Positions 3,370-38,346 of a stretch of DNA of 64,000 bases are shown in pieces. Source of the DNA: Minisyncoccota bacterium (GTDB lineage Bacteria; Patescibacteriota; Minisyncoccia; Phycocordibacterales; GWA1-40-21); the NCBI GenBank assembly GCA_041674925.1, contig JBAYUW010000002.1, positions 13,622 through 77,621 on the forward strand. The letters run 5' to 3'. A program made the translations under genes and the position numbers. Position 1 is the first letter of the stretch, and every line of letters begins with the position of its first letter. The notes beneath the pieces were generated by a model. That model saw only the letters and a list, made by a program, of their open reading frames with translations, had not been told where the DNA came from and ran no database searches.

Positions 3370-4281
3370 TTATTTAAGAATACAATCACAGAAATCCCCC
3401 AACATACTTTCCACTGTCGCCTCCGCCCCCGCCCCCAGACCAAAAGCTTTCTTTTCACCATTAATATACAAGATATTATCGACTCCGTCCGGCAACCAAT
3501 CAGCTTTTGTGTCTTCGATGAAGCCACAGCGAATTTTTTCTTTATTCAAATCAATAATACATCTTTTCGAAATTAAATCTTTTTGTGTGGATAAAATAAC
3601 TTCAACATTTTCTCTTGTGATAATCTTATCAAACAAACCGGAATGATTTGCGATAATAATTGTTTTCAAAACCACATCATTCATTTCTGCTTTTATAATC
3701 TCCTCCAAAGTTTTTGCTCCCGGCTCAGCAAAACCTTTTTCTAAAACCTCTTTCACGGTTTCCTCAACCGAGTTCCCGTTTTTTAAGTTACATGAAATAT
3801 AATTCAAAGTACCGTTCACCACCCCCTTTATGTTTACAATATCTTTCGATTTATATCTCGAAATCTCCTTCAGCATTTTTGTCCCCCCTCCAACTGACGC
3901 CGTGTATCTTAAAATATTCTTATATTGTCTCAGTGTATCCCAATGATAAGCTATCGAGGCCTTCTCGCAAGTAATTACACTTTTTCTTTTTTCTAGTAGA
4001 GCCAAACTATACTTGAGAGCCTCCTCCCCTTTTCCAATTGTCGGAATGCAGACAAAAGCAACGTCGATATCATCAATAAAATTTTTCCAATTTTCTTTTT
4101 CCGAAATTTTATTTAAACCAAAATCAAATACGCCATCAGATCTCACAATATACTTTATTTCAATTTTTTCCTTAGAAATATTCCTTCTCAGTGTCGATCC
4201 TATATTTCCTAGACCAAAAATCATTCCCTTTTTCATTATTAGAGTATACCAGAAAGATATCTTAAAATCTCTATCGGACAT
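3370..4281 (-). CDS. Homoserine dehydrogenase-like NAD(P)-binding protein
   Basis: 303 aa. GLGNIGS Rossmann motif; VNGTLNYI...GFAEPG...D..LK matches the Homoserine_dh signature. Its stop directly abuts the start of the EPSPS-like gene. An alternative ATG at 4236 would put the Rossmann motif at the N-terminus. Confidence 0.7.
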   Translation of the reverse strand: MSDRDFKISFWYTLIMKKGMIFGLGNIGSTLRRNISKEKIEIKYIVRSDGVFDFGLNKISEKENWKNFIDDIDVAFVCIPTIGKGEEALKYSLALLEKRKSVITCEKASIAYHWDTLRQYKNILRYTASVGGGTKMLKEISRYKSKDIVNIKGVVNGTLNYISCNLKNGNSVEETVKEVLEKGFAEPGAKTLEEIIKAEMNDVVLKTIIIANHSGLFDKIITRENVEVILSTQKDLISKRCIIDLNKEKIRCGFIEDTKADWLPDGVDNILYINGEKKAFGLGAGAEATVESMLGDFCDCILK

Positions 4282-4736: not shown

Positions 4737-4745
4737 TGTGGATAA
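4737..4745 (-). promoter_or_regulatory. Perfect DnaA-box-like TTATCCACA(G) motif upstream of yraN
   Basis: Plus strand reads tgtggataa. Lies 42 nt upstream of a TAGGAT box. Confidence 0.5.
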
Positions 4746-4757: not shown

Positions 4758-5387
4758 CTAGGTCTTTCTTAGGGCTAAAGTGAAAGACGGCCCATATTCG
4801 CTGTCATGAATAGTCTTATATACAACTTCAAAATAATTGCCAAGCATCCCAACTAAATCTTCCGGTTTGTATGAATAATAATATTTAGTATCGCCAAGAT
4901 TTACGATCTCCATCTCCTTATAATCTCCGTATTTGCTAGAAATATACAAAATACCTCCTATTTTTAACCATTTACCAGCTTTCTGGAGTAAAACGGCCAA
5001 ATCCTCATGTTTCATATGTAACACGGTGGCAAAAGAGAAAATAATTCCAAATTGATTATCTGAAAACTCTACTTCTCTCAAGTCTTTAACCTGAAACATT
5101 ACACGTGGAACCTTTTTTTTGGCAAAATCAATTAAACCAGCTGAAGCGTCTAATCCATTGTAATTTTCTATCCCGACTTGTGAAACTATGTATTTGGCTT
5201 CCTTGCCATTACCACAGCCAAGCTCTAATACAGCGAGCGAACCAGATTTATTAAAGTTAAACGCTCGATCTATATCATCTTTCCTAACAGCATAAGTATA
5301 AAATTTTTCAGCATAAAAAGCCGCATTTTTATCATAGGCTTCTATTGTTTTCTTGTTTTTATCTAGTTTCATATGTAACCGTTTCAC
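4758..5387 (-). CDS. Class I SAM-dependent methyltransferase
   Basis: 209 aa. Motif I VLELGCGNGKE. The track start is GTG at 5387; the ATG at 5372 (MKLDKNKK...) is an equally plausible start. Confidence 0.75.
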   Translation of the reverse strand: MKRLHMKLDKNKKTIEAYDKNAAFYAEKFYTYAVRKDDIDRAFNFNKSGSLAVLELGCGNGKEAKYIVSQVGIENYNGLDASAGLIDFAKKKVPRVMFQVKDLREVEFSDNQFGIIFSFATVLHMKHEDLAVLLQKAGKWLKIGGILYISSKYGDYKEMEIVNLGDTKYYYSYKPEDLVGMLGNYFEVVYKTIHDSEYGPSFTLALRKT

Positions 5388-5395
5388 GTGAAACG
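5380..5395. promoter_or_regulatory. 16-bp perfect palindrome CGTTTCACGTGAAACG at the 5' end of the methyltransferase gene
   Basis: The sequence is its own reverse complement. A near copy, cgtttcacgcgaaacg, lies at 4484-4499. Confidence 0.35.
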
Positions 5396-5457
5396 TTTGT
5401 TGATTTTATTGGACAAAATGGGTATAAAAGACGTCTTTTATCAACATATCCCCATAG

Positions 5458-5466
5458 TTATCCACA
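5458..5466 (+). promoter_or_regulatory. Perfect TTATCCACA(G) motif upstream of the tRNA-Gly/tRNA-Arg/cca unit
   Basis: agTTATCCACAGttt; a TAGAAT box follows 37 nt downstream. Confidence 0.5.
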
Positions 5467-5624
5467 GTTTAGACAAAATTCATAATCGAGTCTGTAGAAT
5501 AAGGGTTTTCAAAAAGACGCTATATCCCTAAACATTAAAGGACTAGCGATAGTATTGTAACATATTAAATGTTTCGCATTCAAAATTTGTAAAAAAAACA
5601 AAATTAAGTTATAGTGTTTGGGTT

Positions 5625-5695
5625 GCGGGTATGGTTTAATGGTAGAACAGGTCCTTGCCAAGGATCAGATCCGAGTCCGATTCTCGGTACCCGCA
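5625..5695 (+). tRNA. tRNA-Gly (anticodon GCC), no encoded CCA
   Basis: Acceptor GCGGGTA/TACCCGC, anticodon loop TTGCCAA, T-arm CCGAG-TCCGATT-CTCGG. Upstream TTGTAA-N17-TATAGT. Confidence 0.9.
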
Positions 5696-5723
5696 CACCG
5701 AATCGTTTATAAATTAAGTGATT

Positions 5724-5795
5724 GCTCCCATGGTGAAATGGATATCACAACGGTCTTCGGAACCGTTATTGTGGGTTCGAATCCTACTGGGGGCA
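5724..5795 (+). tRNA. tRNA-Arg (anticodon UCG), no encoded CCA
   Basis: Acceptor GCTCCCA/TGGGGGC, anticodon loop CTTCGGA, T-loop TTCGAAT. Confidence 0.9.
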
Positions 5796-5805
5796 CAAAA
5801 AGAAG

Positions 5806-7296
5806 ATGCTCAAAAAGTCTCAAAAATCGGACAACTTGAATATCCCATCTGAAGTTCTAACTGTCGTAAAAACCTTGAAAAATAAGGGTTTTGAAGCGTA
5901 TTTGATTGGTGGTTGTGTGCGCGATATTTTACTTGGGCGCAAGCCAAAAGATTGGGACGTGACGACTGACGCAGTACCGGAAGAAATAATTTCTTCATTC
6001 GAAGATACTTTTTATGAAAATAATTATGGTACGGTTGGTGTGGTAAATGAGGAGGCAAAAGATGAAACTCTAAAAGTGATTGAAGTGACTCCATATAGAC
6101 TAGAGGCGGAATATTCGGATAATAGGAGACCGGATCATGTGACTTTCAGTAAAAAACTGGAAGATGATTTGCAAAGAAGAGATTTCACAATTAATGCCAT
6201 TGCGTTTGATCCAATCGAGGAGAAATATTTCGATTACTATCAAGGACAGGATGATCTGAAAGATAAAATTCTGAGAACAGTGGGGGAACCACATGATCGT
6301 TTTACCGAGGATGGCTTGAGAATCTTGCGAGCGGTGCGAATTGCCACTGAAATTGGCTTTGAAATTGATAAAAAGACCGAAAAAGCCATAATTAGCAACG
6401 CTAATTTGCTGACCAATATCGCCAAGGAACGAATCCGAGACGAATTCGCCAGAATAGTTATGTCAGATAATCCGATGGACGGCCTTGTTTTAAGCCATAA
6501 ATTAGGCCTAATGCCCTATATTGTGCCAGAATTGGAAAAAGCCGTCAGTATTGAGCAAAGCCGGTCCCATGTTTATGATGTCTTTGAGCATAGTTTAAGG
6601 GCCTTACAGCATGCCTCTAGCAAGAAATATACTCTGGAGATGAGATTGGCCGCTCTGTTTCACGATATTGGCAAGCCAGTTTCACGACGCTGGGATAAAG
6701 GACAAAATATCTGGACCTTTTATGGGCATGAAGTGGTCGGAGCAAAAATGGTAGAAAAAATTTTAACAGATTTGAGATTTTCGAAAAAAGTAATTGAAAA
6801 AGTTGTGAAGCTGGTCCGCTGGCATATGTTTTTTGCTGACACCGAACAAATTTCTTTATCGGCAGTGCGAAGAATAATTTCTAGTGTTGGCCGTGACAAT
6901 ATTTGGGACTTAATGAATTTGCGTGGTTGTGATCGAATGGGTATGGGGCGACCAAAAGAAAGTCCATATCGTTTGCGAAAATATCATTCGATGGTGGAAG
7001 AAGCGATGACCGATCCGATTTCGGTTGGTATGCTAAAGCTGGACGGAAAGGGGATCATGGACACCACCAAAGAAGCGCCGGGTCCCAAAATAGGCTTTAT
7101 TTTACACGCTCTTTTGGAAGAAGTGCTGGATAATCCGACCTTAAATACCGAAGAATATCTCAAAAAAAGAGCCAAAGAATTAGCCAAATTGGACATTGCT
7201 GAATTACAAAAACTTGGTGAGTCTGGTAAGGAAACAAAAGAAAAAGAAGAGGAAAAAAAGATTGAAGAGATTCGTAAAAAACATTGGGTGCAATAA
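5806..7296 (+). CDS. cca: CCA-adding tRNA nucleotidyltransferase with HD domain
   Basis: 496 aa. GGCVRDILLGRKPKDWDVTT (pol-beta NTase head), RRDFTINA, HD motif LFHDIGKP. Starts 10 nt after tRNA-Arg. Confidence 0.9.
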   Translation: MLKKSQKSDNLNIPSEVLTVVKTLKNKGFEAYLIGGCVRDILLGRKPKDWDVTTDAVPEEIISSFEDTFYENNYGTVGVVNEEAKDETLKVIEVTPYRLEAEYSDNRRPDHVTFSKKLEDDLQRRDFTINAIAFDPIEEKYFDYYQGQDDLKDKILRTVGEPHDRFTEDGLRILRAVRIATEIGFEIDKKTEKAIISNANLLTNIAKERIRDEFARIVMSDNPMDGLVLSHKLGLMPYIVPELEKAVSIEQSRSHVYDVFEHSLRALQHASSKKYTLEMRLAALFHDIGKPVSRRWDKGQNIWTFYGHEVVGAKMVEKILTDLRFSKKVIEKVVKLVRWHMFFADTEQISLSAVRRIISSVGRDNIWDLMNLRGCDRMGMGRPKESPYRLRKYHSMVEEAMTDPISVGMLKLDGKGIMDTTKEAPGPKIGFILHALLEEVLDNPTLNTEEYLKKRAKELAKLDIAELQKLGESGKETKEKEEEKKIEEIRKKHWVQ

Positions 7297-7302
7297 AATT
7301 TC

Positions 7303-7492
7303 TCCATAAAAAATCACCCGAATCAGGTGTTTCATAGTCGGATGAAAGACGAGCTTCGAGTGATTGTTGAAGCCGTCCATGTTTCAGGAAGCGAGCTTCG
7401 TTGTTATGATGTGGCCAGACATCATGTGGTGAGAAAGAACATTTTTCTTCAAGGCAGAAGCTGGAGAAAATTCGCTTCGGTTACCTTGGTCT
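7303..7492 (-). ncRNA. Candidate ~190-nt small RNA of unknown class
   Basis: Bounded by a canonical minus-strand promoter (7499-7527) and a minus-strand intrinsic terminator (7307-7329). Hairpins ATGATGT-ctggcc-ACATCAT and TTTCAT-ccgact-ATGAAA. About 47 percent G+C in a hand-counted 60-nt sample. No ORF with a credible start inside the predicted transcript. Confidence 0.4.
7307..7329 (-). terminator. Rho-independent terminator (minus orientation)
   Basis: Minus strand reads CACCTG-att-CGGGTG-a-TTTTTT. The U-G wobble on the minus strand becomes a C-A mismatch on the plus strand. Confidence 0.6.
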
Positions 7493-7498
7493 GTTCTT

Positions 7499-7527
7499 AT
7501 TATATGTCCAATAGAAAATACTGTAAA
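7499..7527 (-). promoter_or_regulatory. Sigma70-type promoter TTTACA-N17-TATAAT for the candidate sRNA
   Basis: -35 at 7522-7527 and -10 at 7499-7504 (minus-strand reading). No protein gene lies downstream before the terminator. Confidence 0.5.
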
Positions 7528-7536
7528 GGACATACC

Positions 7537-7545
7537 TGTGGATAA
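7537..7545 (-). promoter_or_regulatory. Perfect TTATCCACA(G) motif upstream of the sRNA promoter
   Basis: Plus strand reads tgtggataa. The motif starts 41 nt upstream of the TATAAT. Confidence 0.5.
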
Positions 7546-7574
7546 CTTTTTTGGTCTGTCCTTTATAAAAACCC

Positions 7575-8354
7575 TTATTTTGCAAGCTCTAATAGCACCG
7601 GGCAATGATCGCTACCAAAAACATCGTTTAGGATTTCAGCTTTTTTTATTTTTTCCTTCAAATTTGACGACACGAAAAAATAATCGATGCGCCAACCGAC
7701 ATTGCGTTCACGCGCAAAAGTTTTCATATCCCACCAACTATATTTAATTTTTTCTGGATATTGAAAACGAAAAGTATCGATCCAGCCGAGAGAAGTAACT
7801 TTATCGAGCCAGTCTCTTTCGATTCTTAAAAAACCTGTGTGATTAGAATTTTCTTTTGGTCGAGCCAAATCAATTTCATTATGCGCGGTATTCACATCGC
7901 CGCAAAAAATAATTTTCTTGTTTTGCTTTTTTAATTTCTCAATATAATTTAAGAATTCCTTATAAAATTTTAGTTTGTATTCGAGACGGGCAGGATCTTC
8001 ACCGCCATTAGGGAAATAGCAGTTGATCAGTGTAAAACCCTTTAAATGCAAGGCTAAAAAGCGCCCCTCCTGATCTAGCTCTTTTTTGCCAAAACCATAA
8101 TCGACAGATAAAATCTCTTTCTCCAAATCTTTTTTTAAAAATATTGCGACACCACTATAACCCTTTCGGACTTTTGAATGATCAAAAAAAGAAAAATATC
8201 CAGCGGGATTTTTTATTTCTTCTGGCAACTGATCGGGGTGTGCTTTAGTTTCTTGCAAGCAAAAAATATCCGAATCAAGTTCAAAAAGTTGATTCCATTT
8301 ATCTTTTTTCACAATCGCCCGTAGGCCGTTTACATTCCAAGATAATATTTTCAT
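7575..8354 (-). CDS. xth: Exodeoxyribonuclease III (AP endonuclease)
   Basis: MKILSWNVNGLRA..., ...GSDHCPV. The track start at 8372 is TTG. The ATG at 8354 is preceded by TGgTATTAT-N6. Confidence 0.9.
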   Translation of the reverse strand: MKILSWNVNGLRAIVKKDKWNQLFELDSDIFCLQETKAHPDQLPEEIKNPAGYFSFFDHSKVRKGYSGVAIFLKKDLEKEILSVDYGFGKKELDQEGRFLALHLKGFTLINCYFPNGGEDPARLEYKLKFYKEFLNYIEKLKKQNKKIIFCGDVNTAHNEIDLARPKENSNHTGFLRIERDWLDKVTSLGWIDTFRFQYPEKIKYSWWDMKTFARERNVGWRIDYFFVSSNLKEKIKKAEILNDVFGSDHCPVLLELAK

Positions 8355-8374
8355 AAAAGAATAATACCACAAAA

Positions 8375-9274
8375 CTAGCTTTTATTATGAAACTTTTTAT
8401 GAGTTTCACGCAAATGTTTGTCGGTTACGTGAGTGTAAATTTGGGTCGTGATGATACTTGAATGACCAAGCATGGTCTGAACTGAGCGAATATCGGCACC
8501 GTTACTGAGCAAATCGGTGGCAAAAACGTGCCGGATGACGTGGGGGGTGACCTTTTTGGTAATGCCAGCGATCGTTGCATAGCGTTTGACGATCCTCTCA
8601 ACAGAACGACTAGTCAAACCTTTGGCTTTCCCAGATACTTTTTGGCCGAGGCGTGTCTTGTCGATTGTCACAAACAAAGCCTCAGACAAATCCTGACGCA
8701 AAGCTAAATACTCTTTGATAATTTTTTTTGCTTCATCTGAAAGAAAAACCACTCGCACCCGACCACCTTTACCACGAATAGAAAATTCATCGAGATTCAG
8801 ATCCAAGTCAGTATTTAATGAGCAAAGTTCGGACACGCGCAGGCCGGTGGAGAAGAGGAGCTCTAAAATAGCCTTATCTCTGGCTCTTCTTTCTGGATTT
8901 TGTTCTTGGTTTGGTGCATCAAGTAAGCGCCTCAATTCTTTTAAAGAAATCAAATCAATCGATCTTTCACCGACTTTGGCTAGTTCAATATTATCCGCCG
9001 GTAGAGAAACAACTCCACGTCTGGCAAGAAATTTTAAAAACACCCTCAGGGCGATCAAATAATAATTCTGGGTTTTTTTATTTAAATTACGGCGATTCAA
9101 CCACAGACGAAATTCCCGAATTTTTTCGTTAGTGATATCTTTGGGGTTGGTAATCTCGGCTTGTTTGAAGAAAAAAGACAAATAACGATTGTATCGATCA
9201 ACAGTTTTGATGGCGCGGCCTTTTTCAATTTCAAGATATTCTAAAAATTGCGTTTTGAGTTCTTTCAGGTCCAT
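8375..9274 (-). CDS. Tyrosine site-specific recombinase XerC/XerD-like
   Basis: 299 aa. C-terminal HVIRHVFATDLL..GADIRSVQTMLGHSSIITTQIYTHV. Confidence 0.85.
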   Translation of the reverse strand: MDLKELKTQFLEYLEIEKGRAIKTVDRYNRYLSFFFKQAEITNPKDITNEKIREFRLWLNRRNLNKKTQNYYLIALRVFLKFLARRGVVSLPADNIELAKVGERSIDLISLKELRRLLDAPNQEQNPERRARDKAILELLFSTGLRVSELCSLNTDLDLNLDEFSIRGKGGRVRVVFLSDEAKKIIKEYLALRQDLSEALFVTIDKTRLGQKVSGKAKGLTSRSVERIVKRYATIAGITKKVTPHVIRHVFATDLLSNGADIRSVQTMLGHSSIITTQIYTHVTDKHLRETHKKFHNKS

Positions 9275-9332
9275 AAATAACAGTATAGCACGAGCCCTTG
9301 CATTTTTAAAAGAAATGTGCTAGACTTCTCAA
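9275..9332. promoter_or_regulatory. 58-bp divergent promoter region giving leaderless xerC-like and rpsO transcripts
   Basis: Minus: TGcTATACT (9282-9287) then N7 then ATG at 9274. Plus: TTGCAT-N17-TAGACT (9321-9326) then N6 then ATG at 9333. Confidence 0.55.
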
Positions 9333-9593
9333 ATGCTTACAAAAACCAAAAAAGCTAAGGTTATAAAGGAAGTGGCTGTTCACGAAGGCGATACCGGCTC
9401 GACCGATGTGCAAATCGCTGTTTTGTCGAAAAGAATTGATGAATTAGCTTCTCATTTAAAGAAAAACCCAAAGGATAATCACTCACGCCGAGGTTTACTT
9501 GGTATGGTGGCTGATCGCCGAACTCATCTTAAATATTTAGAGAAAAGCAATCCAAAACGTTACGCTTCGGTTGTTAAAAAGTTGGGTCTCTAA
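9333..9593 (+). CDS. rpsO: 30S ribosomal protein S15
   Basis: 86 aa. GDTGSTDVQIAVLSKRI..L..HLK.NPKDNHSRRGLL.MV..RR..L.YL. Confidence 0.95.
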   Translation: MLTKTKKAKVIKEVAVHEGDTGSTDVQIAVLSKRIDELASHLKKNPKDNHSRRGLLGMVADRRTHLKYLEKSNPKRYASVVKKLGL

Positions 9594-9673
9594 TTTTTTA
9601 GCCTTTTAATATGTTACAATGTAAGCACGGTCGAGGCTTATTTACTTTTTAATAATTCTTAATAATTTTTTAT

Positions 9674-10198
9674 ATGTTAATCAAACACAAAGATCAAAGA
9701 GTTGGTATTTTTATTGATACCCAAAATATCTATCACTGCGCCAAAAATTTATACGGAGCGAAAGTCAATTTTGCTCAAGTCGTCAAAGACGCCTTGGCTG
9801 GCCGATCATTGATCCGAGCGATTGCCTATGTTATCACCACTGAAAGTGGCGATGAAAAAGGTTTTTTTGAAGCCCTAACTAAAGCGGGAATTGAGACAAA
9901 AACCAAAAATTTGCAAATCTTCGCTGGCGGCGCTAAAAAAGCCGACTGGGATGTCGGTCTCGCTGTCGATGCCATCAAAATGGCGCCCAAGCTTGATACA
10001 GTTATCATCGTATCTGGCGATGGCGACTTCGTTCCTTTAGTAGAGTACTTAAAGATGAACGAGGGTTGCCAAGTCGAAGCTTTATGCTTTGGCAAGAGTA
10101 CTTCTGCCAAATTAATCGAGGTTGTCGATGGTTTCACCGATCTCGATGAAAATGCTCGTAAATATTTACTCGGTTCAGTTGGAGGAAGGGGAAGATAA
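9674..10198 (+). CDS. NYN/LabA-like (DUF88) domain protein
   Basis: 174 aa. VGIFIDTQNIYH ... IIVSGDGDFVPLVEYLK. Confidence 0.8.
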   Translation: MLIKHKDQRVGIFIDTQNIYHCAKNLYGAKVNFAQVVKDALAGRSLIRAIAYVITTESGDEKGFFEALTKAGIETKTKNLQIFAGGAKKADWDVGLAVDAIKMAPKLDTVIIVSGDGDFVPLVEYLKMNEGCQVEALCFGKSTSAKLIEVVDGFTDLDENARKYLLGSVGGRGR

Positions 10199-10223: not shown

Positions 10224-10232
10224 TTATCCACA
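10224..10232 (+). promoter_or_regulatory. Perfect TTATCCACA(G) motif upstream of the ORF6N gene
   Basis: TTATCCACAG-N20-TGaTAGTAT-N9-ATG(10272). Confidence 0.5.
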
Positions 10233-13044: not shown

Positions 13045-13064
13045 GGTCGGATTTATCCACAGTT
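13030..13064 (+). repeat. Direct-repeat copy 1 (last pnp codons + stop + TTATCCACAG motif)
   Basis: 13030-13046 aaattgggaaaataggg recurs at 13586-13602. 13038-13064 recurs at 14720-14746 with 26/27 identity. Confidence 0.8.
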
Positions 13065-14719: not shown

Positions 14720-14746
14720 AAAATAGGGTCCGATTTATCCACAGTT
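14720..14746 (+). repeat. Direct-repeat copy 3 including a perfect TTATCCACAG motif (14735-14744)
   Basis: aaaatagggtccgatttatccacagtt versus 13038-13064 (one mismatch). Followed by N20-TGgGATACT. Confidence 0.8.
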
Positions 14747-28271: not shown

Positions 28272-28320
28272 CTCTAAAAAATTAGTCAGCAAAATTTATT
28301 TATGGTAAAATAAAATCAGC

Positions 28321-30462
28321 TTGTCCAAGTTTCATTTAACCATGTTCACATTTTTTTCTAAAACCAAAACCTTCACCCTTTCTTCAAAAATAATCATCTC
28401 TCTTTTGCTGGCTGTGGTGCTGTGGGGTGGGGGTGCGTTAAACAATCTGAGCGGTATTCTTAACACTGATAAAGTTTATGCTGCAGACTTCCCCTCGTCG
28501 GCAGTTACTCCAGAAGGCGAAATTAGATCTGCCCCCGAACGAACCGCGGAAGAAATACAAGCTTCGAAAGAGAAAGCCGATTGGTTTGTGGATGGTCTTG
28601 TCAGTGCTTTTAAAAAACTCGGAAATGGAGTACTGTCTACAGTTTTAAATGTTATTGCGGGGGTTCAAGGATTAGTTGTAGTGCCAGTACTTGGTGTAAT
28701 CATGAGAATCGCTGGTGCCTTATTAAATCTATCTGTGATATATACACTAGACTCAAACAACCTTACCTCAGTTAATACGGCAATACAAACAGTTTGGAAG
28801 ATCGTGAGAGATTTATTTAACATTACATTTATATTTGTGTTACTTTATGCAGCAATTAAAACGATCTTGGGAATTTCAGGATCCAACACAAAAAAAATTA
28901 TTGCCCAGGTTATTGTCGCGGCCTTACTTATAAATTTCAGTCTATTTATCACTCGAGTTTGTATCGATGTGGGAAACCTCTTGGCGGCAAATTTATACAA
29001 CACAGCGACAGCTGACGGAGCAAAATCTATGGGGACAATGATTTTAGATTCCACACAGCTTTCGGGATTATGGGATGTATCAAATTGGAAGAGTCTCAGC
29101 CTTGAAAGCCCGTCCTTGTTTTTTGCTATTAATCTTCAAATCGTATTGCTTTATATCGCTATTGGTACTTTTTTTTATATAACAATCATGTTTTTAACAA
29201 GAAACATCCTGCTAATATTTTTAATGGCCCTATCTCCGATTGGTTTTATGGGCAATGTATTACCAAAGATAGAGGAATACTCAAAAATGTGGAGAGAGAA
29301 TCTTTTTGGACAAATTTCAATTGCTCCAATTTTTCTCTTATTGTTTTACTTAATATCCCTAATCACAGGAACAATAAAAAAAGCAATATTGGCCTCACCG
29401 AACCAAAGCTGGTTTCACGACAGTGATCAAAACTACCTGACGTATTTTCAATACTTAATGGTCATACTATTACTGATAATAGCAACAAAAATTACAAAAA
29501 AACTGTCTGGTGAGGTTGGAAAATTTATCGAATCTGGAGTTAAAGCAGCATTAATAGCTGGCGCGGCGGTGATTAGTGGTGGTGCAGCTATCGCTGTTGG
29601 AGCAAGAGCGGGTGGTGGCATCCTGTCAGCAACAAAGAAATTTGTGAAAGGTACACTTGGTGATGAGCCGGGGGCCGTCGGTGTTGGGGCTCGATTTGCG
29701 AGAAGTAGAATCATGAATACGTTCAAGACTGGGACTGGAGGAAGACTTGATCTACAGAAACTAGAAAAGGACTACAAGCAAAGTAAAAAAGAAAATGAGG
29801 ATAGAGTAATGAAAAAACTCGAAGCTATTGGTCCACAGAAAGCATTTGACGAGGAGAAACGTCTTAATGACACTCTATCAAACATCAATCAGCAGATCTC
29901 TAAACAAAATCCAAATCTGATAACTAAATCTACTCAAGACGGTGAAAAAGTCCAAGAATTGGAAGCAAAAATCAAGGAGTCTGATAAAAAAATTGATGAG
30001 GCGATAAAGGAGAAAGCGGCCGCCACAACAATAGAACAAAAAGCTCTTATTGATGCAAAGATTGCGGCAGCTACAAAAGAGAAAACTGATGCTCAGTCTG
30101 GCCTATCAGGAGCAAAGTTTGCAAAATTAATGTCTGAGAAGGCCCTGACCGACGCACAGGATAAGGTTGCAAAATCAATGGGTACAGATATTAAATCCAT
30201 AACTGATGCTCTGGCAAATACAGGACAGAAGATTCTTGAGGGTATGGAAAGAAAAAATGAATACATAAAAGATTTTGCAGGTAGTGGCATGTTAAGCACT
30301 GGAATGGCACGCGATGACCGTGAAAAAGTTGTCGCTAGAATGAGAGCGCAACAGGGTAAATATACTGGTGATGGTGACTTACGAAAGCAACTCGAGAAAT
30401 TGATGAAAGATGCTAAAATAGCACCAGAGGCAGACAAGCCGGCTGAGAAAAAAACAACATAA
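28321..30462 (+). CDS. Polytopic membrane protein, VirB6/TrbL/PrgH-like candidate, with long K/A/E-rich coiled-coil tail
   Basis: 713 aa. Signal/TM plus at least 6 further hydrophobic helices, then about 250 aa of charged coiled coil. First gene of the T4SS-like operon. TTG start at 28321 (TGgTAAAAT-N9 upstream); alternative ATG at 28342. Confidence 0.5.
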   Translation: MSKFHLTMFTFFSKTKTFTLSSKIIISLLLAVVLWGGGALNNLSGILNTDKVYAADFPSSAVTPEGEIRSAPERTAEEIQASKEKADWFVDGLVSAFKKLGNGVLSTVLNVIAGVQGLVVVPVLGVIMRIAGALLNLSVIYTLDSNNLTSVNTAIQTVWKIVRDLFNITFIFVLLYAAIKTILGISGSNTKKIIAQVIVAALLINFSLFITRVCIDVGNLLAANLYNTATADGAKSMGTMILDSTQLSGLWDVSNWKSLSLESPSLFFAINLQIVLLYIAIGTFFYITIMFLTRNILLIFLMALSPIGFMGNVLPKIEEYSKMWRENLFGQISIAPIFLLLFYLISLITGTIKKAILASPNQSWFHDSDQNYLTYFQYLMVILLLIIATKITKKLSGEVGKFIESGVKAALIAGAAVISGGAAIAVGARAGGGILSATKKFVKGTLGDEPGAVGVGARFARSRIMNTFKTGTGGRLDLQKLEKDYKQSKKENEDRVMKKLEAIGPQKAFDEEKRLNDTLSNINQQISKQNPNLITKSTQDGEKVQELEAKIKESDKKIDEAIKEKAAATTIEQKALIDAKIAAATKEKTDAQSGLSGAKFAKLMSEKALTDAQDKVAKSMGTDIKSITDALANTGQKILEGMERKNEYIKDFAGSGMLSTGMARDDREKVVARMRAQQGKYTGDGDLRKQLEKLMKDAKIAPEADKPAEKKTT

Positions 30463-30468
30463 AATAAC

Positions 30469-31149
30469 ATGGATCAAGAAACAGAAAAAATAATAGCCGA
30501 GCAGATGAAGAAATTGCCGAAAGATGTGATTGCGGCGATTATTTCCGTGGATTACAAAACAAAATTACAAGAGATTACCAAGGCGCAAAAATTGTTGATT
30601 GATCAAGCGGGGAAATTGGAAATGGAGACGACCTTGGTGATGATTGGTCTGGAACCACTCGCTGATTATGTGGCTAATCTTCAGAGAGAATTGGGAGTGG
30701 CCAGGGTCAAGGCTCAGGAAGTTGCGACGATGGTGAGTGAAAATATTTTCAAACCGATTCGCGATTCTTTGTATGCAATGAATAATGGGGAAGTAGAAGA
30801 GAAAGTGGAAGAAAAAATAATTCGCGCTACTGATTCAAATGATTCCAATTTAAACCGAGACCAAATTTTGAACGAAATCGAAGACCCATCACTCATCGGT
30901 AAAAGTGGTGTGACCAAATTTACTCCTGCGGTTAAAGAAGAGACGACAACTGCGATCGAGACTTTGGCCGAAGTACCATATCAGCAAGATATTCAAGCAC
31001 CAAAAGCTAGTCTTCTAGAAACCAAGATGGCTGGAATCACCATTACCTCCCAACAGAAAGTCCAAGCTGAACCAGCCTATAAATTACCAGAAACCGAAAA
31101 AAAGAAACCTTTTGGTGGAGTCGATCCTTATCGCGAGGAAATAAAATAA
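30469..31149 (+). CDS. Hypothetical acidic protein in the T4SS-like operon
   Basis: 226 aa, no TM. Starts 7 nt after the previous stop. Confidence 0.6.
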   Translation: MDQETEKIIAEQMKKLPKDVIAAIISVDYKTKLQEITKAQKLLIDQAGKLEMETTLVMIGLEPLADYVANLQRELGVARVKAQEVATMVSENIFKPIRDSLYAMNNGEVEEKVEEKIIRATDSNDSNLNRDQILNEIEDPSLIGKSGVTKFTPAVKEETTTAIETLAEVPYQQDIQAPKASLLETKMAGITITSQQKVQAEPAYKLPETEKKKPFGGVDPYREEIK

Positions 31150-31150
31150 A

Positions 31151-31582
31151 ATGAGATTTCAAGTACCACAATTCATTGAAATTGAAGATAAAATCTTTGG
31201 TCCATTGACCATCAAACAGTTTATTTATATTGCTGGTAGTGCCGGTTTGTCTTTTATTTTATTTCGCTTTTTATATCTGCCGTTTGCAATTGTTTTGATT
31301 GTGGCCGTGACCATTTTTGCTTTGACTATGGCTTTTTATCGGATAAACAACAAACCCTTTATTGATGTCTTGCAAAGTGCTTTCGGTTATTTCTTTTCTA
31401 GTAAATTGTATTTGTGGAAGAAAAAAGACAAAGTTAAACCAACCCTAAAAGCTCCGGTTTTAAATTCGGCAGTTCAAAAACCTATTTATGTTCCGAAATT
31501 ATCAGAAAGCAAGTTGCACGATTTAACTTGGAGCTTGGACATTAAAGAAAGTCTCAATCCCGGAACACACGAAGAAAGATAA
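31151..31582 (+). CDS. PrgI-family (VirB3-like) membrane protein
   Basis: 143 aa. N-terminus MRFQVPQFIEIEDKIFGPLTIKQFIYIAGSAG matches the PrgI signature (QVP.F...EDKI.GPLT..QF) and is followed by two TM helices. Confidence 0.75.
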   Translation: MRFQVPQFIEIEDKIFGPLTIKQFIYIAGSAGLSFILFRFLYLPFAIVLIVAVTIFALTMAFYRINNKPFIDVLQSAFGYFFSSKLYLWKKKDKVKPTLKAPVLNSAVQKPIYVPKLSESKLHDLTWSLDIKESLNPGTHEER

Positions 31583-31623
31583 TAAGTGCAAGTCATTCGG
31601 TTTTGGGTTATAATAATCAGAGT

Positions 31624-32259
31624 ATGGCTGTTACTAAAACCACACAAGAATTTGTTCCCATCAAAGAAGTCCGCGATGGTGTGATAATAATGAAAGACGG
31701 TTCAATGAAAGCCGTCGTTTTGTCTTCGTCTTTAAACTTTGCTTTAAAATCAGTTGAAGAGCAGGAAGCAATCATCTATCAATTCCAGAATTTTCTAAAC
31801 TCCCTCGACTTTTCAGTACAAATCTCTATTCAATCTCGACAGCTAGACATCAGACCATATCTTTCTTCTTTAGAAAAACAATATACCGAACAGTTGAACG
31901 ATTTAATCAAGATTCAGATCAAAGAATACGTGCAATTCATAAAAAGCTTTACGGAAAATTCCAATATTATGGCTAAAACTTTCTTTATGGTTATTCCTTT
32001 CAGTCCATCAGTTTTGGGGCCTAAAAAAGACAGTTCTTTAGGGAAATTTCTACAAAAAGCAGGAACAAAAGAAAAAGCTGGTCAAAAGAATGACAATTTT
32101 GAGGAGAATCGTACACAATTAGAACAAAGAGTAGCGGTGGTTCAGCAAGGTTTGCTGCGTTGTGGAATCAGAAGTGTCAGTTTGGGAACAGAAGAGACAA
32201 TCGAATTGTTTTATAAATTATTTAATCCTGGCGATACCGAAAAGCCAATTACTCTCTAA
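31624..32259 (+). CDS. Hypothetical protein resembling a stand-alone VirB4/TrsE N-terminal domain
   Basis: 211 aa from the ATG at 31624 (track TTG at 31603). TQEFVPIKEVRDGVIIMKDGSMKAVVLSSSLNFALKSVEEQEAII..F.NFLNSL pattern. No Walker motifs. Confidence 0.55.
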   Translation: MAVTKTTQEFVPIKEVRDGVIIMKDGSMKAVVLSSSLNFALKSVEEQEAIIYQFQNFLNSLDFSVQISIQSRQLDIRPYLSSLEKQYTEQLNDLIKIQIKEYVQFIKSFTENSNIMAKTFFMVIPFSPSVLGPKKDSSLGKFLQKAGTKEKAGQKNDNFEENRTQLEQRVAVVQQGLLRCGIRSVSLGTEETIELFYKLFNPGDTEKPITL

Positions 32260-32264
32260 AAATT

Positions 32265-34079
32265 ATGGCCTTATTTGATTTTTTAAAAAAGAAAACTCCC
32301 GAACCAGAACTAGCTTCTTTCTTGCCCCAAGAAATTTATGAAAGTGGGGTTTTGGAATTGCAGGATATCATCGCCCCTTCGGCCCTAAAAATTACTCCTA
32401 ATGAAATAAATCTGGGTGGAAAAATCGCCCGCACTTTCTTTGTCATTTCTTATCCAAGATTTTTAACCGAAAGCTGGTTTGCACCAATTATCAATCTCGA
32501 TAAAATCTTTAATATTTCTATCTTCATTCACCCAATCGAGACCGCCAAAGTCTTGCGTCAATTCCAGAAAAAAGTGGCGGAGGTTCAAAGCCAGATCAAT
32601 GCTCGAGAAAATAGGGGGTTGGTTCGTGATCCAATGCTCGATACCGCTTACCAAGATTTGGAATCTTTGCGTGATAATCTCCAACAGGCCCAAGAGAAAC
32701 TCTTTGACGTTGGCGTTTATATCACCCTTTATGCTGATAATGATGATGATTTAAGTAAATTAGAGACTGAAATTAAATCTATTTTGGAATCAAAATTAGT
32801 TTATCTTAAACCTGCTCTGTTCCAACAAGAACAAGGTTATAAAAGTATTTTGCCGACCGCCAATGATGAACTGATGGTTCACTCAAAACTCAATTCATCA
32901 CCGCTATCGAGTATTTTCCCATTTGTATCTTTCGATTTAACCTCAGACAAAGGTATCCTTTATGGAATCAACCGCCATAATAATAGCTTGGTGCTTTTTG
33001 ATCGTTTCTCTTTGGACAACTACAACTCAGTTACTTTCGCTAAATCTGGTTCCGGAAAATCTTATGCTACCAAATTGGAAATCTTGCGTTCATTAATGTT
33101 TGAAACCGAAGTGATTGTCATTGACCCAGAAAAAGAATATCAGTTTTTATCTGAAGCGATTGGTGGAAAGAATTTTAATATTTCCCTAAACTCTGAAAGC
33201 CATATCAATCCGTTTGATTTGCCAATTTCTCGTGACGATGAATCACCAGCTGACGTCTTGCGTTCAAATATTATAAACCTGGTTGGTTTGTTTAGAATTA
33301 TGTTTGGTGGTTTAACACCAGAAGAAGACGCTATTATCGACCGCGCCATCAGTGAAACTTACGCCCTCAAAGACATCACCCCGGAATCAGATTTTTCCAA
33401 TCTTGAACCACCGCTGTTATCAGATTTTGAATTAGTTTTGTCTGGTATGGAGGGGGCAGAGGGTTTGGTTCAAAAACTGTCCAAATACACCCGTGGCTCT
33501 TGGGCTGGTTTTATCAACCGACCTACCAATGTCGATATTAACGCCAAATTCGTCGTCTTTTCAATTCGTGATATGGAAGACGAACTCAAACCGGTCGCAA
33601 TGTATATTATTACTCACTATATCTGGACCGCCATCAGACGAGAGCTGAAAAAGAGATTGTTGGTTATTGATGAGGCGTGGTGGATGATGAAAAGTGAAGA
33701 CACCGCCTCTTTCTTGTTTAGTTTGGCAAAACGAGGAAGAAAATATTTCCTCGGTTTGGCCACTATTACCCAAGACGTTGATGACTTTTTGCGTTCACCA
33801 TACGGTCTGCCAATCGTGACAAACTCTTCGATTCAGATTCTTTTGAAACAAAGCCCTTCGACGGTTGATAACTTACAAAGAACATTTAATTTGACTGACG
33901 AGGAAAAGTTTCTTTTGTTGGAATCGGATGTAGGGGAGGGGTTGTTCTTTGTGGGACAAAAACACGTGGCCATCAAGGTTATCGCCTCTTATACCGAAGA
34001 TCAAATCATCACTTCCGACCCATCACAACTTTTGGCAATTAAAAAGGCGCGGGAAGAATTAAACTCTAGTGCACAATAA
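32265..34079 (+). CDS. virB4: VirB4/TrsE/PrgJ-type type IV secretion ATPase
   Basis: 604 aa. Walker A AKSGSGKSYATK, Walker B RLLVIDEAWWMM, TQDVDDF, N-terminal YPRFL..SW domain. Confidence 0.85.
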   Translation: MALFDFLKKKTPEPELASFLPQEIYESGVLELQDIIAPSALKITPNEINLGGKIARTFFVISYPRFLTESWFAPIINLDKIFNISIFIHPIETAKVLRQFQKKVAEVQSQINARENRGLVRDPMLDTAYQDLESLRDNLQQAQEKLFDVGVYITLYADNDDDLSKLETEIKSILESKLVYLKPALFQQEQGYKSILPTANDELMVHSKLNSSPLSSIFPFVSFDLTSDKGILYGINRHNNSLVLFDRFSLDNYNSVTFAKSGSGKSYATKLEILRSLMFETEVIVIDPEKEYQFLSEAIGGKNFNISLNSESHINPFDLPISRDDESPADVLRSNIINLVGLFRIMFGGLTPEEDAIIDRAISETYALKDITPESDFSNLEPPLLSDFELVLSGMEGAEGLVQKLSKYTRGSWAGFINRPTNVDINAKFVVFSIRDMEDELKPVAMYIITHYIWTAIRRELKKRLLVIDEAWWMMKSEDTASFLFSLAKRGRKYFLGLATITQDVDDFLRSPYGLPIVTNSSIQILLKQSPSTVDNLQRTFNLTDEEKFLLLESDVGEGLFFVGQKHVAIKVIASYTEDQIITSDPSQLLAIKKAREELNSSAQ

Positions 34080-34104
34080 ACAAATCTGTTATAATTAAAC
34101 AGAG

Positions 34105-35100
34105 ATGAAAATATCTTTAACTACATTAATCAGCGTTGGTCTGTTTTTGATTTTTCCAGTCTTATTTCTCAATGCTCAAAACAATAATATTAATAGCCTG
34201 ACTAGTATTTCTATCAGTCCCCAAGCTCCCGCTCCAGCGACCCAGGCCAAGGTCAGCCTACAAAGTTTTTCCTCGGATTTAAATCGAGCTAAAATTACCT
34301 GGTTTATCGATGGTCAAGAAAAAAGAACAGAAATTGGTTTAAAAGATTTTTATATTCAGGCCGGACGAGCTGGTAGACTGATGACAGTTGGAGCAAAAGT
34401 TGAATTTTTGGACGGCTCAATTGACAATCGAGAGGTTTCTTTTATTCCAGCCGGAGTTGATTTACTATTTGAGGCGATCTCTTACACCCCACCATTTTAC
34501 AAAGGTAAAGCCCTTAATATCAAGCAGGGAACCGTGGTGGTAGTGGCTTTTCCAGAGCTTTTTGATGAAAATGGTAGAAAATACAGTACCAAGGAATTAA
34601 TTTATAACTGGAGAAGTGGCGGTTTGGTGGTGGCTAGTGCTTCAGGTATTGGAAAAAACTATTTTACCTATACCGGCAGTATTCCAGTTCGTGATGCGGA
34701 AATCGAGGTTTCTGTTAGTTCTCTAGACCAGAAAGTCGTGGCTAATAATTCCATCAATATCACCACCACTGATCCGAAAATTGTATTTTATGAAAACAGT
34801 CCAATCTACGGAATCATGATGAATCGCGCGATAAAAAGTTCAGTTAATATGCTTATTGATGAATTCAGTGTTGTGGCGGTGCCATATTTCTTTAGTGCTG
34901 GTTACGCCAATACTCCTGATTTGGATTATACTTGGAGTTTGAATGGACAAAAAGTTGAAACTCAGGATCAAAAGAATATTTTTACCACGAGAATAGAAAA
35001 GGGAGCGGGAACAGCCAATATTGGTTTAAAAATCAGTAATAATGTCCGCTTTTTCCAATATACCGACAATAATTATTTGATTAATTTTGAAAAACAATAA
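34105..35100 (+). CDS. Hypothetical secreted protein in the T4SS-like operon
   Basis: 331 aa. Signal peptide MKISLTTLISVGLFLIFPVLFLNA. TGtTATAAT-N9-ATG upstream. Confidence 0.65.
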   Translation: MKISLTTLISVGLFLIFPVLFLNAQNNNINSLTSISISPQAPAPATQAKVSLQSFSSDLNRAKITWFIDGQEKRTEIGLKDFYIQAGRAGRLMTVGAKVEFLDGSIDNREVSFIPAGVDLLFEAISYTPPFYKGKALNIKQGTVVVVAFPELFDENGRKYSTKELIYNWRSGGLVVASASGIGKNYFTYTGSIPVRDAEIEVSVSSLDQKVVANNSINITTTDPKIVFYENSPIYGIMMNRAIKSSVNMLIDEFSVVAVPYFFSAGYANTPDLDYTWSLNGQKVETQDQKNIFTTRIEKGAGTANIGLKISNNVRFFQYTDNNYLINFEKQ

Positions 35101-35101
35101 A

Positions 35102-35539
35102 ATGTTTAAGTATTTAATTTTACTAGTCACAGTGTTCCCAATTAAACTATTGGCTTTAGACTACCAACCACTGGAGGGGGATGTTTTCGCTGACTTTACA
35201 ACATCTGGAACAAGCAGTGATTTGGCATTGTTTTTGGCTGGCGCCTTCCAGTTTGGATTGGCTCTGGCGGCCGCTTTAGCGGTAGTTATGATCGTTTGGG
35301 GTGGTGTAGAAATTATGCTTTCTGAATCACTTTTTAAAAAAGAAGATGGTAAAAAGAAAGTCTGGGACGCTGTCTGGGGACTTTTACTGGCTTTGGTATC
35401 CTGGTTAATCCTTTATACAATTAATCCAGCAATTCTCGACTGGAGTGCTGTTTCAACACCAGACGCTGAGTATATTCAAAATCTAGACAGCGAACAACAA
35501 AATGCCAATGATTTAGATATGTCAGTGAGTGGTGGATAA
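35102..35539 (+). CDS. T4SS pilin-like (VirB2/TrbC-like) small membrane protein
   Basis: 145 aa from the ATG at 35102 (track TTG at 35087). Signal peptide plus two hydrophobic helices (LALFLAGAFQFGLALAAALAVVMIVWGG; VWGLLLALVSWLILYTI). Confidence 0.6.
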   Translation: MFKYLILLVTVFPIKLLALDYQPLEGDVFADFTTSGTSSDLALFLAGAFQFGLALAAALAVVMIVWGGVEIMLSESLFKKEDGKKKVWDAVWGLLLALVSWLILYTINPAILDWSAVSTPDAEYIQNLDSEQQNANDLDMSVSGG

Positions 35540-35552
35540 ATTTAAAACAAAG

Positions 35553-36788
35553 ATGAAAATGTCAAAAAAGTCAGCGATAATATTGATTCTAACGGTCTTC
35601 TTGGGAGCCCTCGCGGCTTTGATTTGGTTTTATTTTGCTGGTGTGGGTTTACCAACCAAGGCGCCAATAAAACAGATTTCGACTGGTGAAGTTTATGATC
35701 CTTTCGGCACTATTAGTACCAGTAGCTCAGTTGCAAGTTCAACCGAAGAGATTGTCCCGGTTGAAGGTCAAAATAATTTTATTGTCGAAAACCGATTAAG
35801 AAAGATTTCTGATGATCCAATTTCTGGTTATGCTGTGAATGAAAATTTAATTCATTATATTCTGCGAGCTAATGGAAATATTTACGAGACAAGCAAGGAT
35901 TCTTTGGAAATAAAAAGACTATCTATCACGACAATTCCAAAAGTGTATGAATCAGTTTGGTTGCCTGGTGGTGAAAAATTAATTATTCGTTATTTAAAAG
36001 ATAATACTGAAAATATCGAAACTTTCTCGGTTAAAATTAACCCCGCCACCACCACCTTAAACGAATTTGAAGGGGGGATAGATGGTAATTTCCTACCAGA
36101 GGGTATCTCGACTGTGGTTATCAATCCAGCTGGCGATAAAATCTTTTACTTAACAAACAATTTAAATGGGGCTTCGGGTTTTGTCTCCAAACCAGATGGT
36201 TTAAATAAGAGCTTATTATTTGAATCGCCCTTGATTGAATGGGCTGTTTCTTGGCCAAAAGAAGAGACAATTACCATGAGCACCAAACCCACCGCTAAAA
36301 TTCCAGGTTATCTCTATTTCCTAAACACAAAAACCGGAGATTTTTCTAAAATTTTGGGTGGTATCACCGGATTAACTACAAAAATTAATAAAACTGCCAG
36401 TGAAGTTTTGTATTCTGATAGTGTTCGAAATACCCCAAGATTATATTTGTTTAATATTAAGAATAATGAGAGCAAACTTCTACCCTGGAGCACCTTTCCA
36501 GAAAAGTGTTTGTGGAGCAATGTTGATGCCACGACTGTCTACTGTGCTGTGCCAAAAAGTTTTTCGACGGGCGAGTATCCAGACTTATGGTATCAGGGTC
36601 TAACCAGCTTTACTGACGATATTTGGAGAATCAATACCAATACTGGTGCCTCGACCTTGGTTTTTGATATTCAAAAAGAAACCAAAAATAATCTTGATAT
36701 TGTGGATTTAAATCTAGACCAAAATGATGATTATCTATTTTTCACCAACAAAACTGATCTGACTTTATGGAGTTTAAAACTTAAATAG
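35553..36788 (+). CDS. Hypothetical TM-anchored protein, possibly beta-propeller-like
   Basis: N-terminal TM SAIILILTVFLGALAALIWFYF. Repetitive beta-rich remainder. The track start is GTG at 35529; ATGs at 35553 and 35559. Confidence 0.6.
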   Translation: MKMSKKSAIILILTVFLGALAALIWFYFAGVGLPTKAPIKQISTGEVYDPFGTISTSSSVASSTEEIVPVEGQNNFIVENRLRKISDDPISGYAVNENLIHYILRANGNIYETSKDSLEIKRLSITTIPKVYESVWLPGGEKLIIRYLKDNTENIETFSVKINPATTTLNEFEGGIDGNFLPEGISTVVINPAGDKIFYLTNNLNGASGFVSKPDGLNKSLLFESPLIEWAVSWPKEETITMSTKPTAKIPGYLYFLNTKTGDFSKILGGITGLTTKINKTASEVLYSDSVRNTPRLYLFNIKNNESKLLPWSTFPEKCLWSNVDATTVYCAVPKSFSTGEYPDLWYQGLTSFTDDIWRINTNTGASTLVFDIQKETKNNLDIVDLNLDQNDDYLFFTNKTDLTLWSLKLK

Positions 36789-38001: not shown

Positions 38002-38346
38002 TTACTCTTTCAAGATTTTGGCCTTTTTCAGCAACACCACAACCTCTTTAGCTATTTCTGAATAGGGTAGTTGGGAAATATCTTTCTTAACAAAGACTAG
38101 ACCAGAACTGTCTGTTTTAATGTTTAATAGCTCTTTTTCAACCACCGATGATATTCTTCTTTTGATCCAGTGTCGGCCGACCGAGGTTTTTTTGACTTTG
38201 TTGGGGATAATAAAGGAAAAAGTGGGTATTTTTTGCTCTTTTTTAATCAAAAGACGTAAATACAGGTTTTCCCCATGGAAAAACTGGCCGTTTTTCATAA
38301 TTTCGGCGAAAAACTCTTTCTTAACCCTATTTTTAATGGGAAGCAT
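38002..38346 (-). CDS. rnpA: Ribonuclease P protein component
   Basis: 114 aa. Lies between rpmH and yidC; VGRHWIKRRI (RNR-like) motif. Confidence 0.85.
   Translation of the reverse strand: MLPIKNRVKKEFFAEIMKNGQFFHGENLYLRLLIKKEQKIPTFSFIIPNKVKKTSVGRHWIKRRISSVVEKELLNIKTDSSGLVFVKKDISQLPYSEIAKEVVVLLKKAKILKE

Follow-up and report, generated by a model that had tools for sequence, protein, structure and literature searches.

The stretch of DNA analysed here, hereafter the window, comprises 64,000 nucleotides of a Minisyncoccota bacterium (assembly GCA_041674925.1, contig JBAYUW010000002.1, positions 13,622 to 77,621). A gap of 278 bp in it, between cca (5806-7296, plus strand; product with a PolyA_pol head, RNA-binding and HD domains) and the convergent xth (7575-8372, minus strand; product with an Exo_endo_phos domain), holds an RNA gene. 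The unit occupies 7307-7492 on the minus strand, with a predicted transcript of ~185 nt and a G+C content of 0.42-0.45 against 0.30-0.37 in its flanks; open reading frames (ORFs) of 72 aa (7327-7545, plus), 73 aa (7384-7605, minus) and 58 aa (7204-7380, minus) overlap it. A first-pass annotation made from the letters alone had read the gap as an autonomous promoter-to-terminator unit for a non-coding RNA of ~190 nt, and this reading is supported by the conservation of the unit, its occurrence in both orientations, covariation and the lack of a conserved ORF. We found the particulars as it had described them: the raised G+C content, the ORFs of the gap, which agree with the ORF list, the GAAGC(T/G)CG-like words within the unit, and a canonical minus-strand promoter, TTTACA-N17-TATAAT at 7527-7499, which is the top sigma-70-like match (11/12) in window 5000-10000 and is preceded by a motif, TTATCCACAG, at 7545-7536. 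It had not noticed the rrn-type boxA motif, the operator-like TGTCCTTTA repeats or the long-range helix of the terminator. We consider it reasonably probable that this is an autonomous, structured non-coding RNA gene of a new family in Paceibacteria-type bacteria of the candidate phyla radiation (CPR), working through a boxA-Nus mechanism and acting in trans. From the upstream sites to the terminator, its features are as follows.

7557-7565, minus strand: operator-like upstream half-site TAAAGGACA, an inverted copy of TGTCCTTTA (sequence, homologues)
7536-7545, minus strand: TTATCCACAG, a perfect DnaA-box consensus upstream of the -35 (sequence, alignment)
7522-7532, minus strand: -35 element TTTACA (7527-7522), overlapped by the operator-like half-site TGTCCTTTA (7532-7524); invariant in homologues
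7499-7509, minus strand: -10 element TATAAT (7504-7499) with an abutting spacer half-site remnant, GGACA (7509-7505) (sequence)
7307-7492, minus strand: predicted primary transcript, ~185 nt; start placed from the -10 and a conserved CAGA, end in the U-tract
7450-7488, minus strand: H1, a 5' hairpin at the position of the rrn boxB, with UCUCC in its apical loop (predicted fold)
7434-7441, minus strand: boxA-like UGUUCUUU, the most conserved element within the transcript (homologue comparison)
7406-7425, minus strand: H2, a 7-bp hairpin AUGAUGU-CUGGCC-ACAUCAU after boxA, with a self-complementary GGCC in its loop (fold, alignment A9)
7369-7399, minus strand: H3, a 31-nt hairpin GAAGC...GGCUUC enclosing 8 nt (fold, alignments A9 and A3)
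7308-7364, minus strand: terminator, a long hairpin closed by AUCACUCGAA/UUCGGGUGAU with a conserved apical loop CCGACU, followed by U6 (7313-7308) (fold, homologues)

The family was traced chiefly through the promoter. A metagenome scan with its 24-nt core, GTTATCCACAG(G/A)TATGTCCTTTAC, sampling Paceibacteria-type CPR bacteria, recovered at least 46 contigs with exactly one copy each; the core or a close variant also lies at no fewer than eight genome loci of such bacteria, the xth relatives mark the organism as a Paceibacteria/Parcubacteria-type CPR bacterium, and similarity searches recovered the region in several of their loci. Together, the metagenome and genome loci (numbered below with the prefix L) amount to at least 43 distinct sequences, and more than 50 loci besides that of the window keep the unit. 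In alignment A1, an invariant block, AGTTATCCACAG(G/A)TA-TGTCCTTTAC, precedes the -10; the transcribed part is far less conserved than this promoter, and the 3' hairpin and U-tract are again conserved. The unit sits at the 3' end of cca in nearly all loci, usually between convergent cca and xth, and the cca proteins encoded there share 54-81% identity with that of the window. In most loci it is directed toward cca and in at least nine toward xth, each time with its own promoter and terminator, and in some loci other genes intervene between it and xth. Occurrence in both orientations, each time with its own promoter and terminator, is not what a 3' untranslated region (UTR) or an antisense element bound to one neighbour would show.

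As a side observation on these loci, some relatives carry a 210-aa ORF inserted beside the RNA gene (L003:3914-4546; L040:2652-3263; L054:3531-4157; L067:1648-2259), with more distant paralogues in L002, L010, L036, L037 and L057 and none in the window; its product looks like a candidate TrmB-type transcription regulator without the N-terminus.

The promoter of the RNA is embedded among further DNA motifs. In most homologues the upstream position is taken by TAAAGGACA or by a full 18-bp palindrome, TGTCCTTTATAAAGGACA, and the spacer is often filled by a third copy of TGTCCTTTA; altogether the promoter carries two to four TGTCCTTTA half-sites, two of them over the -35 and the spacer, with the DnaA-box sequence located between the upstream and -35 copies. 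The -10 reads TATAAT, TACAAT, TAAAAT or TAGAAT in the homologues at a constant distance. TTATCCACAG belongs to the 24-mer core and is invariant in alignment A1; in L001 it is inverted and is therefore a separate protein-binding site rather than a part of the core promoter. The combination of operator-like repeats with a DnaA box suggests a putative repressor-type operator plus a putative second factor. We considered, prompted by the xth neighbour, that TGTCCTTTA might be a LexA/SOS operator, and the literature yielded no usable support for this. Other matches to TGTCCTTTA fall mostly at one conserved spot within the cca coding sequence and are therefore not regulatory. The second real cluster of TGTCCTTTA is the tRNA-cca promoter: the promoter of the tRNA-Gly/tRNA-Arg/cca operon (window 5432-5467, plus strand) bears the same motif pair as the RNA promoter, with a TGTCYTTTA-like half-site that starts 26 nt before TTATCCACAG, a spacing that is equal in the window and in three relatives (L001:6308-6342, L012:6202-6236 and L013:5998-6042). 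These common motifs suggest that the stable-RNA genes may be co-regulated.

Within the transcribed region, the conservation is one of architecture. The transcripts run from ~185 nt (the window copy, the shortest) to ~425 nt and share one plan, in which H1 is followed by boxA, a short H2, an H3 of variable length and a long terminator hairpin with its U-tract. H1 measures 20-90 nt in the homologues and often has UCUCC in its loop or 3' arm, and H3 has GAAAG/CUUUC-like closing arms around an insert that reaches ~200 nt in relatives and is shortest in the window. The family terminator has AACCGCY.../...RGCGGUU-like arms followed by U5-8; in the window its closing helix is a long-range pairing of 10 bp (7364-7355 with 7322-7313), and, as in an intrinsic terminator, a G+C-rich hairpin directly precedes the U-tract on the transcribed strand. 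The first-pass annotation had recognised both ATGATGT/ACATCAT (7425-7406) and TTTCAT/ATGAAA, hairpins that are indeed present, and had placed the terminator at CACCTG-ATT-CGGGTG-ATTTTTT. The latter sequence does occur (7329-7315, minus strand), as one of several terminator-like sites of this strand, and its stem does acquire a C-A mismatch on the plus strand, where a minus-strand U-G pair becomes C-A, but it is not the conserved helix: in this local 6-bp stem the same 3' arm takes an alternative, nearer partner, and the pairing lacks conservation. Two exact copies of CGAAGCTCG are found in the RNA, at 7400-7392 and 7358-7350 (minus strand), each forming the 5' arm of one helix (H3 and the terminator); the repeat is not kept in relatives and may be a local duplication or chance.

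Several lines of evidence indicate that these helices are maintained as RNA structure. For the predicted transcript (7492 to ~7307) the folding energy is -51 kcal/mol and z against shuffles is -3.5, as compared with z = -1.9 for the opposite (plus) strand, and many G-U pairs suit the minus strand only. With the terminator removed, 20 of ~25 evaluable homologues still give z < -2, and the H1 and H2 segments of 27 homologues are stabler than shuffles (Wilcoxon p 2e-7 and 6e-5, respectively). We report covariation per clade, from small alignments; cross-clade MAFFT alignments were unreliable. In the MAFFT-only alignment A3 of five clade C members, covering H3 and the terminator, 11 of 40 predicted pairs are changed on both sides, most of them in the 28-pair H3 helix. 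A covariance model, R1, made from L005 and L049 only, matches window 7306-7447 with 50.5 bits (E 9e-9). In the resulting alignment A9, which holds three sequences only and is fitted to the model, 98.6% of the cells pair, and nine of the 23 pairs are compensatory against 0-2 in slid controls. Both-sided changes affect three of the six modelled pairs of H2, compensatory ones are seen in three of the seven closing pairs of the terminator, and the H3 helix is likewise supported. The two checks that the first-pass annotation had proposed for the fold, minimum free energy and covariation across homologous intergenic regions, thus came out in its favour, the former with the minus strand better than the plus, the latter at clade level and as pair-change counts.

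The loop of H2 (window 7413-7418) deserves a separate remark. It is usually a self-complementary 4-6-mer, which varies among clades yet stays palindromic (UGAUCA, GGCC/UGGCCA, CUGCAG, AACGUU, UAGCUA). A centred palindromic tetramer is present in 10 of 24 H2 loops versus 12 of 117 other hairpin loops (Fisher p 6e-4, a count that relatedness inflates); a test for the longest palindrome after boxA was not significant, whereas the loop-centred test was. Self-complementary loops hint at self-association, as in the orphan structured RNAs (raiA motif, ROOL, GOLLD, OLE), and the palindromic H2 loops could serve kissing-loop dimerisation or form a symmetric DNA site.

The RNA shares a motif, GUUCUUU, with the rrn boxA, the site of NusB/S10, whose core it matches exactly. 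A GUUCUUU-type heptamer lies at most 140 nt from the start in 28 of 31 distinct homologues, where a base-composition estimate expects ~0.4 by chance, and is often followed by (G/A/C)A. In the window the heptamer (7440-7434) comes ~9 nt after the promoter-proximal H1 (7488-7450), as a boxA follows a boxB, and the single-stranded UGUUCUUUC (7441-7433) resembles GYUCUUUAA, with CU in place of the following AA. The published search pattern for boxA is GYTCTTTAANA (PMC5725501). The pattern GTTCTTTVA, outside which the RNA's own boxA, GTTCTTTCT, falls, has one match in the window against 4.2 expected; this is GTTCTTTCA (9259-9267, plus strand), ~70 nt upstream of rpsO (S15), where it overlaps the start of a divergent xerC-like gene and is possibly due to chance.

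The resemblance extends to layout, the 5' half of the transcript being arranged like the leader of an rRNA operon (rrn). Such leaders are made up of boxB, boxA, boxC and a long leader-trailer helix whose flanks vary, the pre-16S leader having small leader helices, then the long helix, and fast-evolving flanks (PMC10250234). Our RNA corresponds to the published layouts in its strong promoter, the promoter-proximal hairpin and a single-stranded GUUCUUU ~50-120 nt from the start (PMC10250234; PMC2800207), in the sequence of small leader hairpins followed by a long helix with a variable insert between its strands, in the place that an rRNA would otherwise take, and in having fast-evolving flanks around a boxA that alone is nearly constant. 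It differs in that it has no rRNA or tRNA inside or downstream of it: no rRNA genes follow in the same unit, which ends at its own intrinsic terminator after 185-425 nt, facing the convergent cca. Moreover, no equivalent of boxC was identified in it, and its promoter core was not found before any rRNA. The distinctive feature of the predicted RNA is an rrn-type boxB/boxA leader on a short terminated transcript.

As far as sequence can establish them, we regard the conservation, autonomy, architecture and covariation of the unit, together with its want of coding potential and of a match to any known family, as settled; the transcription start, Nus binding and any trans function we infer. In the mechanism that we propose, the near-consensus sigma-70-type promoter, set among protein-binding sites, would drive the ~185-nt transcript, and transcription would end next to the cca stop codon, at the long intrinsic terminator that faces this convergent gene. 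The nascent boxA would bind NusB-S10 and thereby nucleate a Nus-factor antitermination/chaperone complex on RNA polymerase; formation of the NusB:NusE:BoxA complex constitutes the key step of assembly in known systems (PMC2800207). This complex may shield the untranslated and highly structured transcript from Rho and pausing and aid the formation of its helices, comparable to the boxA upstream of the likewise untranslated CRISPR arrays, which is thought to block Rho (PMC7862264). The strong terminator would then release the RNA for action in trans, which would probably consist in binding protein in connection with the synthesis of stable RNA or ribosomes.

A number of points weigh against this proposal. 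The promoter is more conserved than the RNA body, which would likewise agree with a function of transcription as such or of protein binding to the DNA. The start, end and abundance of the transcript are predictions, and the covariation was counted on small alignments at clade level; one full-length model, built on L005 and L049, detected the window well and misplaced distant members, L009 and L045 being misaligned because the lengths of H1 and H3 vary too much. With respect to boxA, it is degenerate in L001 (GTTCATT), not found or far from the start in L058, L053 and L054, and in several clades its GUUCUU can pair with an adjacent AAGAA, so that the motif may be conserved for structure. A highly structured RNA of 185 nt, furthermore, seems hardly to need protection from Rho. 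Finally, a search for nus, rho and rnc genes found none in the 64-kb window, including nusB, nusG and rho, and the machinery is assumed from general knowledge.

The same leader-like layout, H1, boxA, H2 and a leader-trailer-like H3 with nothing inside (PMC10250234), would be expected if the RNA served as a decoy or sensor of the rRNA-leader type, an 'empty' pre-rRNA whose presence titrates or reports NusB-S10, other antitermination/assembly factors or RNase III and so couples stable-RNA synthesis to factor availability, its useful activity being the binding of factors rather than protection of the transcript. Such a role would account for the stronger conservation of the promoter relative to the RNA body, in which insert lengths vary freely, and it accords with the two protein-site motifs common to the RNA and tRNA-cca operon promoters and with the widespread autoregulation of Nus factors via boxA (PMC5725501). 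With one boxA per RNA, titration would work only if the RNA were very abundant, and both abundance and binding are suppositions; the conserved H2 loop, the CCGACU loop and a G-G mismatch segment in H3 suggest more than a carrier of boxA, and we regard this explanation as rather unlikely. In its broader form, a functional 'empty pre-rRNA' kept for the factors it recruits (NusB-S10, antitermination/assembly factors, RNase III), which as decoy or sensor would set stable-RNA synthesis and might be a homodimer through its H2 loop, the idea is a tentative possibility. Quite improbable, in turn, is that the layout is left over from a former rRNA or tRNA operon, whose leader and trailer decay without present function after loss of the gene. 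The empty H3 and a body highly variable in length and sequence would suit such a remnant, but the unit is single-copy and in the same place, with an invariant 24-nt promoter core and an intact terminator despite cca being only 54-60% identical, its helices are maintained by compensatory changes, and streamlined CPR genomes do not keep 280 bp of junk. We give equally little credence to the view that the unit is no independent gene at all, but serves xth and/or cca as 3' UTR or shared terminator, or acts on cca in cis by antisense or interference, beside a functionless promoter match. Its position directly downstream of xth on the same strand, the terminator abutting the cca stop codon, the A-tract on the other side of the hairpin, which could serve both directions, and the near-constant adjacency to the cca 3' end are what this would predict. 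Against it stand the consensus -35 and -10 at fixed spacing in what is the most conserved part of the locus, the at least nine loci in which the unit is inverted relative to both neighbours and keeps its own promoter and terminator, the genes that separate it from xth in some loci, and the boxA and three covarying helices, whose conservation is not to be expected of a 3' UTR.

The remaining alternatives concern the identity of the product. Although the 72-, 73- and 58-aa ORFs overlap the region, that one of them, or a shorter one, encodes a small protein is scarcely credible: when the stop-free segments (at least 15 codons, all six frames) of 31 homologues were compared with one another, all against all, no peptide proved to be conserved across clades, and similar peptides were seen only between near-identical DNA pairs, in several frames and on both strands. 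The length of the unit, moreover, varies by non-multiples of three and by large insertions and deletions. Neither the 7327-7545 (plus) nor the 7384-7605 (minus) ORF, whose conservation the first-pass annotation had named as counting against its reading, is thus conserved as protein. It is likewise highly improbable that this is the bacteria's 6S RNA, which would bind RNA polymerase as a mimic of the open promoter. The length of the window copy and a strongly promoted stand-alone gene would fit, and 6S sequences are poorly conserved in general; nevertheless, the 6S covariance models (RF00013 and related) have no match at E up to 10 in the region or up to 5 in 16 loci, and a rod-like 6S fold was not seen among the minimum-free-energy folds of the window RNA and 30 homologues, which form separate hairpins in a row. 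The ends do not pair with each other, four to five hairpins stand one after another, the terminator hairpin that makes up the 3' end is self-contained, all covarying helices are local, and lengths reach ~425 nt. The tentative suggestion of a 6S-like RNA made at first pass, lacking both a model match and a rod closed by the two ends, is accordingly abandoned. Rfam 15 scans of the window and 19 homologous loci at gathering score returned tRNAs only, and scans of the region and 16 loci at permissive E-values gave scattered chance matches to unrelated families, none recurrent, in agreement with the failure at first pass to recognise signal recognition particle (SRP) RNA, RNase P RNA, transfer-messenger RNA (tmRNA) or a riboswitch. 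A fragment of rRNA, 5S, SRP, RNase P or tmRNA was likewise rejected, with no local model match and no tmRNA found by ARAGORN, as was the leader of an actual rRNA operon, with no rRNA in the window or downstream in 19 loci scanned whole. A literature search on CPR RNA motifs, CPR 6S, boxA small RNAs and the motif strings found no description of this RNA. It is a previously undescribed family, absent from Rfam 15, of a known general kind, the stand-alone bacterial non-coding RNA.

As an autonomous non-coding RNA gene, the unit can be set beside other known systems. It shares with suhB, rpsJ and CRISPR arrays a boxA outside the rRNA operon and near the transcript start (PMC5725501; PMC7862264), and with the arrays an untranslated transcript; those, however, are mRNAs or long arrays, whereas the entire product in our case is an RNA both short and highly folded. 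Like the lambda nut site, it has a boxA followed within 5-20 nt by a short hairpin, here H2, but it lacks a phage context or an N-like gene, its H2 loops are self-complementary 4-6-mers instead of GNRA-like pentaloops, and an extra hairpin lies upstream of boxA, as in rrn leaders. With 6S RNA it has in common a stand-alone housekeeping-type RNA gene of ~185 nt and low sequence conservation, in contrast to which it has no model match, closing stem or central bubble and is variable in length. It parallels the raiA motif RNA, ROOL, GOLLD and OLE in its own promoter and terminator, a conserved multi-helix architecture and neighbourhood, and a function that is not known; it matches none of their Rfam models, is much smaller than ROOL, GOLLD and OLE, carries a boxA and, as far as sampled, is confined to CPR bacteria.

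Very few non-coding RNAs are, to our knowledge, known from CPR/Patescibacteria. The small genomes of CPR bacteria retain little that is dispensable, so an RNA gene that a broad clade keeps in single copy and at a single place is likely to be important to their biology; its promoter is conserved better than the promoters of most protein genes. We know of boxA otherwise from rRNA operons, a few mRNAs, phage nut sites and CRISPR arrays. Its presence in a short terminated RNA putatively adds small RNAs to what the Nus machinery acts on; the published boxA survey explicitly left non-coding RNAs unconsidered (PMC5725501). Should the RNA prove an ordinary regulatory small RNA, it would still be a new family for RNA databases and genome annotation. 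The locus also exposes two candidate regulatory DNA motifs, the DnaA-box sequence close to the promoter and the TGTCCTTTA operator. As far as we know, how these uncultivated bacteria control transcription has essentially not been studied.

The first of these motifs recurs elsewhere in the window. The perfect DnaA-box 9-mer TTATCCACA has eight copies in 64 kb against ~0.8 estimated from base composition (3586-3594, 4737-4745 and 7537-7545 on the minus strand; 5458-5466, 10224-10232, 13053-13061, 14735-14743 and 40139-40147 on the plus strand), and 38 matches with one mismatch against 17.6 expected. In six of the eight copies a G follows, and six of the eight are found upstream of genes, where a -10-like TAnnAT typically comes 23-32 nt later. 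The 9-mer looks like a general promoter-proximal element of the lineage, with DnaA perhaps a global transcription factor. In one clade (L003:4932-4940; also L023 and L047), the AT-rich apical loop of H3 contains TTATCCACA as a second DnaA-box sequence within the transcribed region.

Imperfect DnaA-box clusters flank dnaA (38627-39973), at window 38202-38587 and 39981-40147, the latter falling between dnaA and dnaN (40192-41292), and this dnaA/dnaN region (~38-40 kb) is the probable replication origin; an oriC at the RNA locus, which has one DnaA box only, was rejected. Just upstream of the probable origin are yidC and an R3H/Jag-like gene. The window further contains, at ~28300-36800 (plus strand), a run of same-strand genes, several of whose ORFs have no Pfam match and others of which encode PrgI-family, TraG/VirB4-like P-loop and type IV secretion pilin domains; the cluster they form, ~2 kb upstream of the origin region, is type IV secretion- or conjugation-like.

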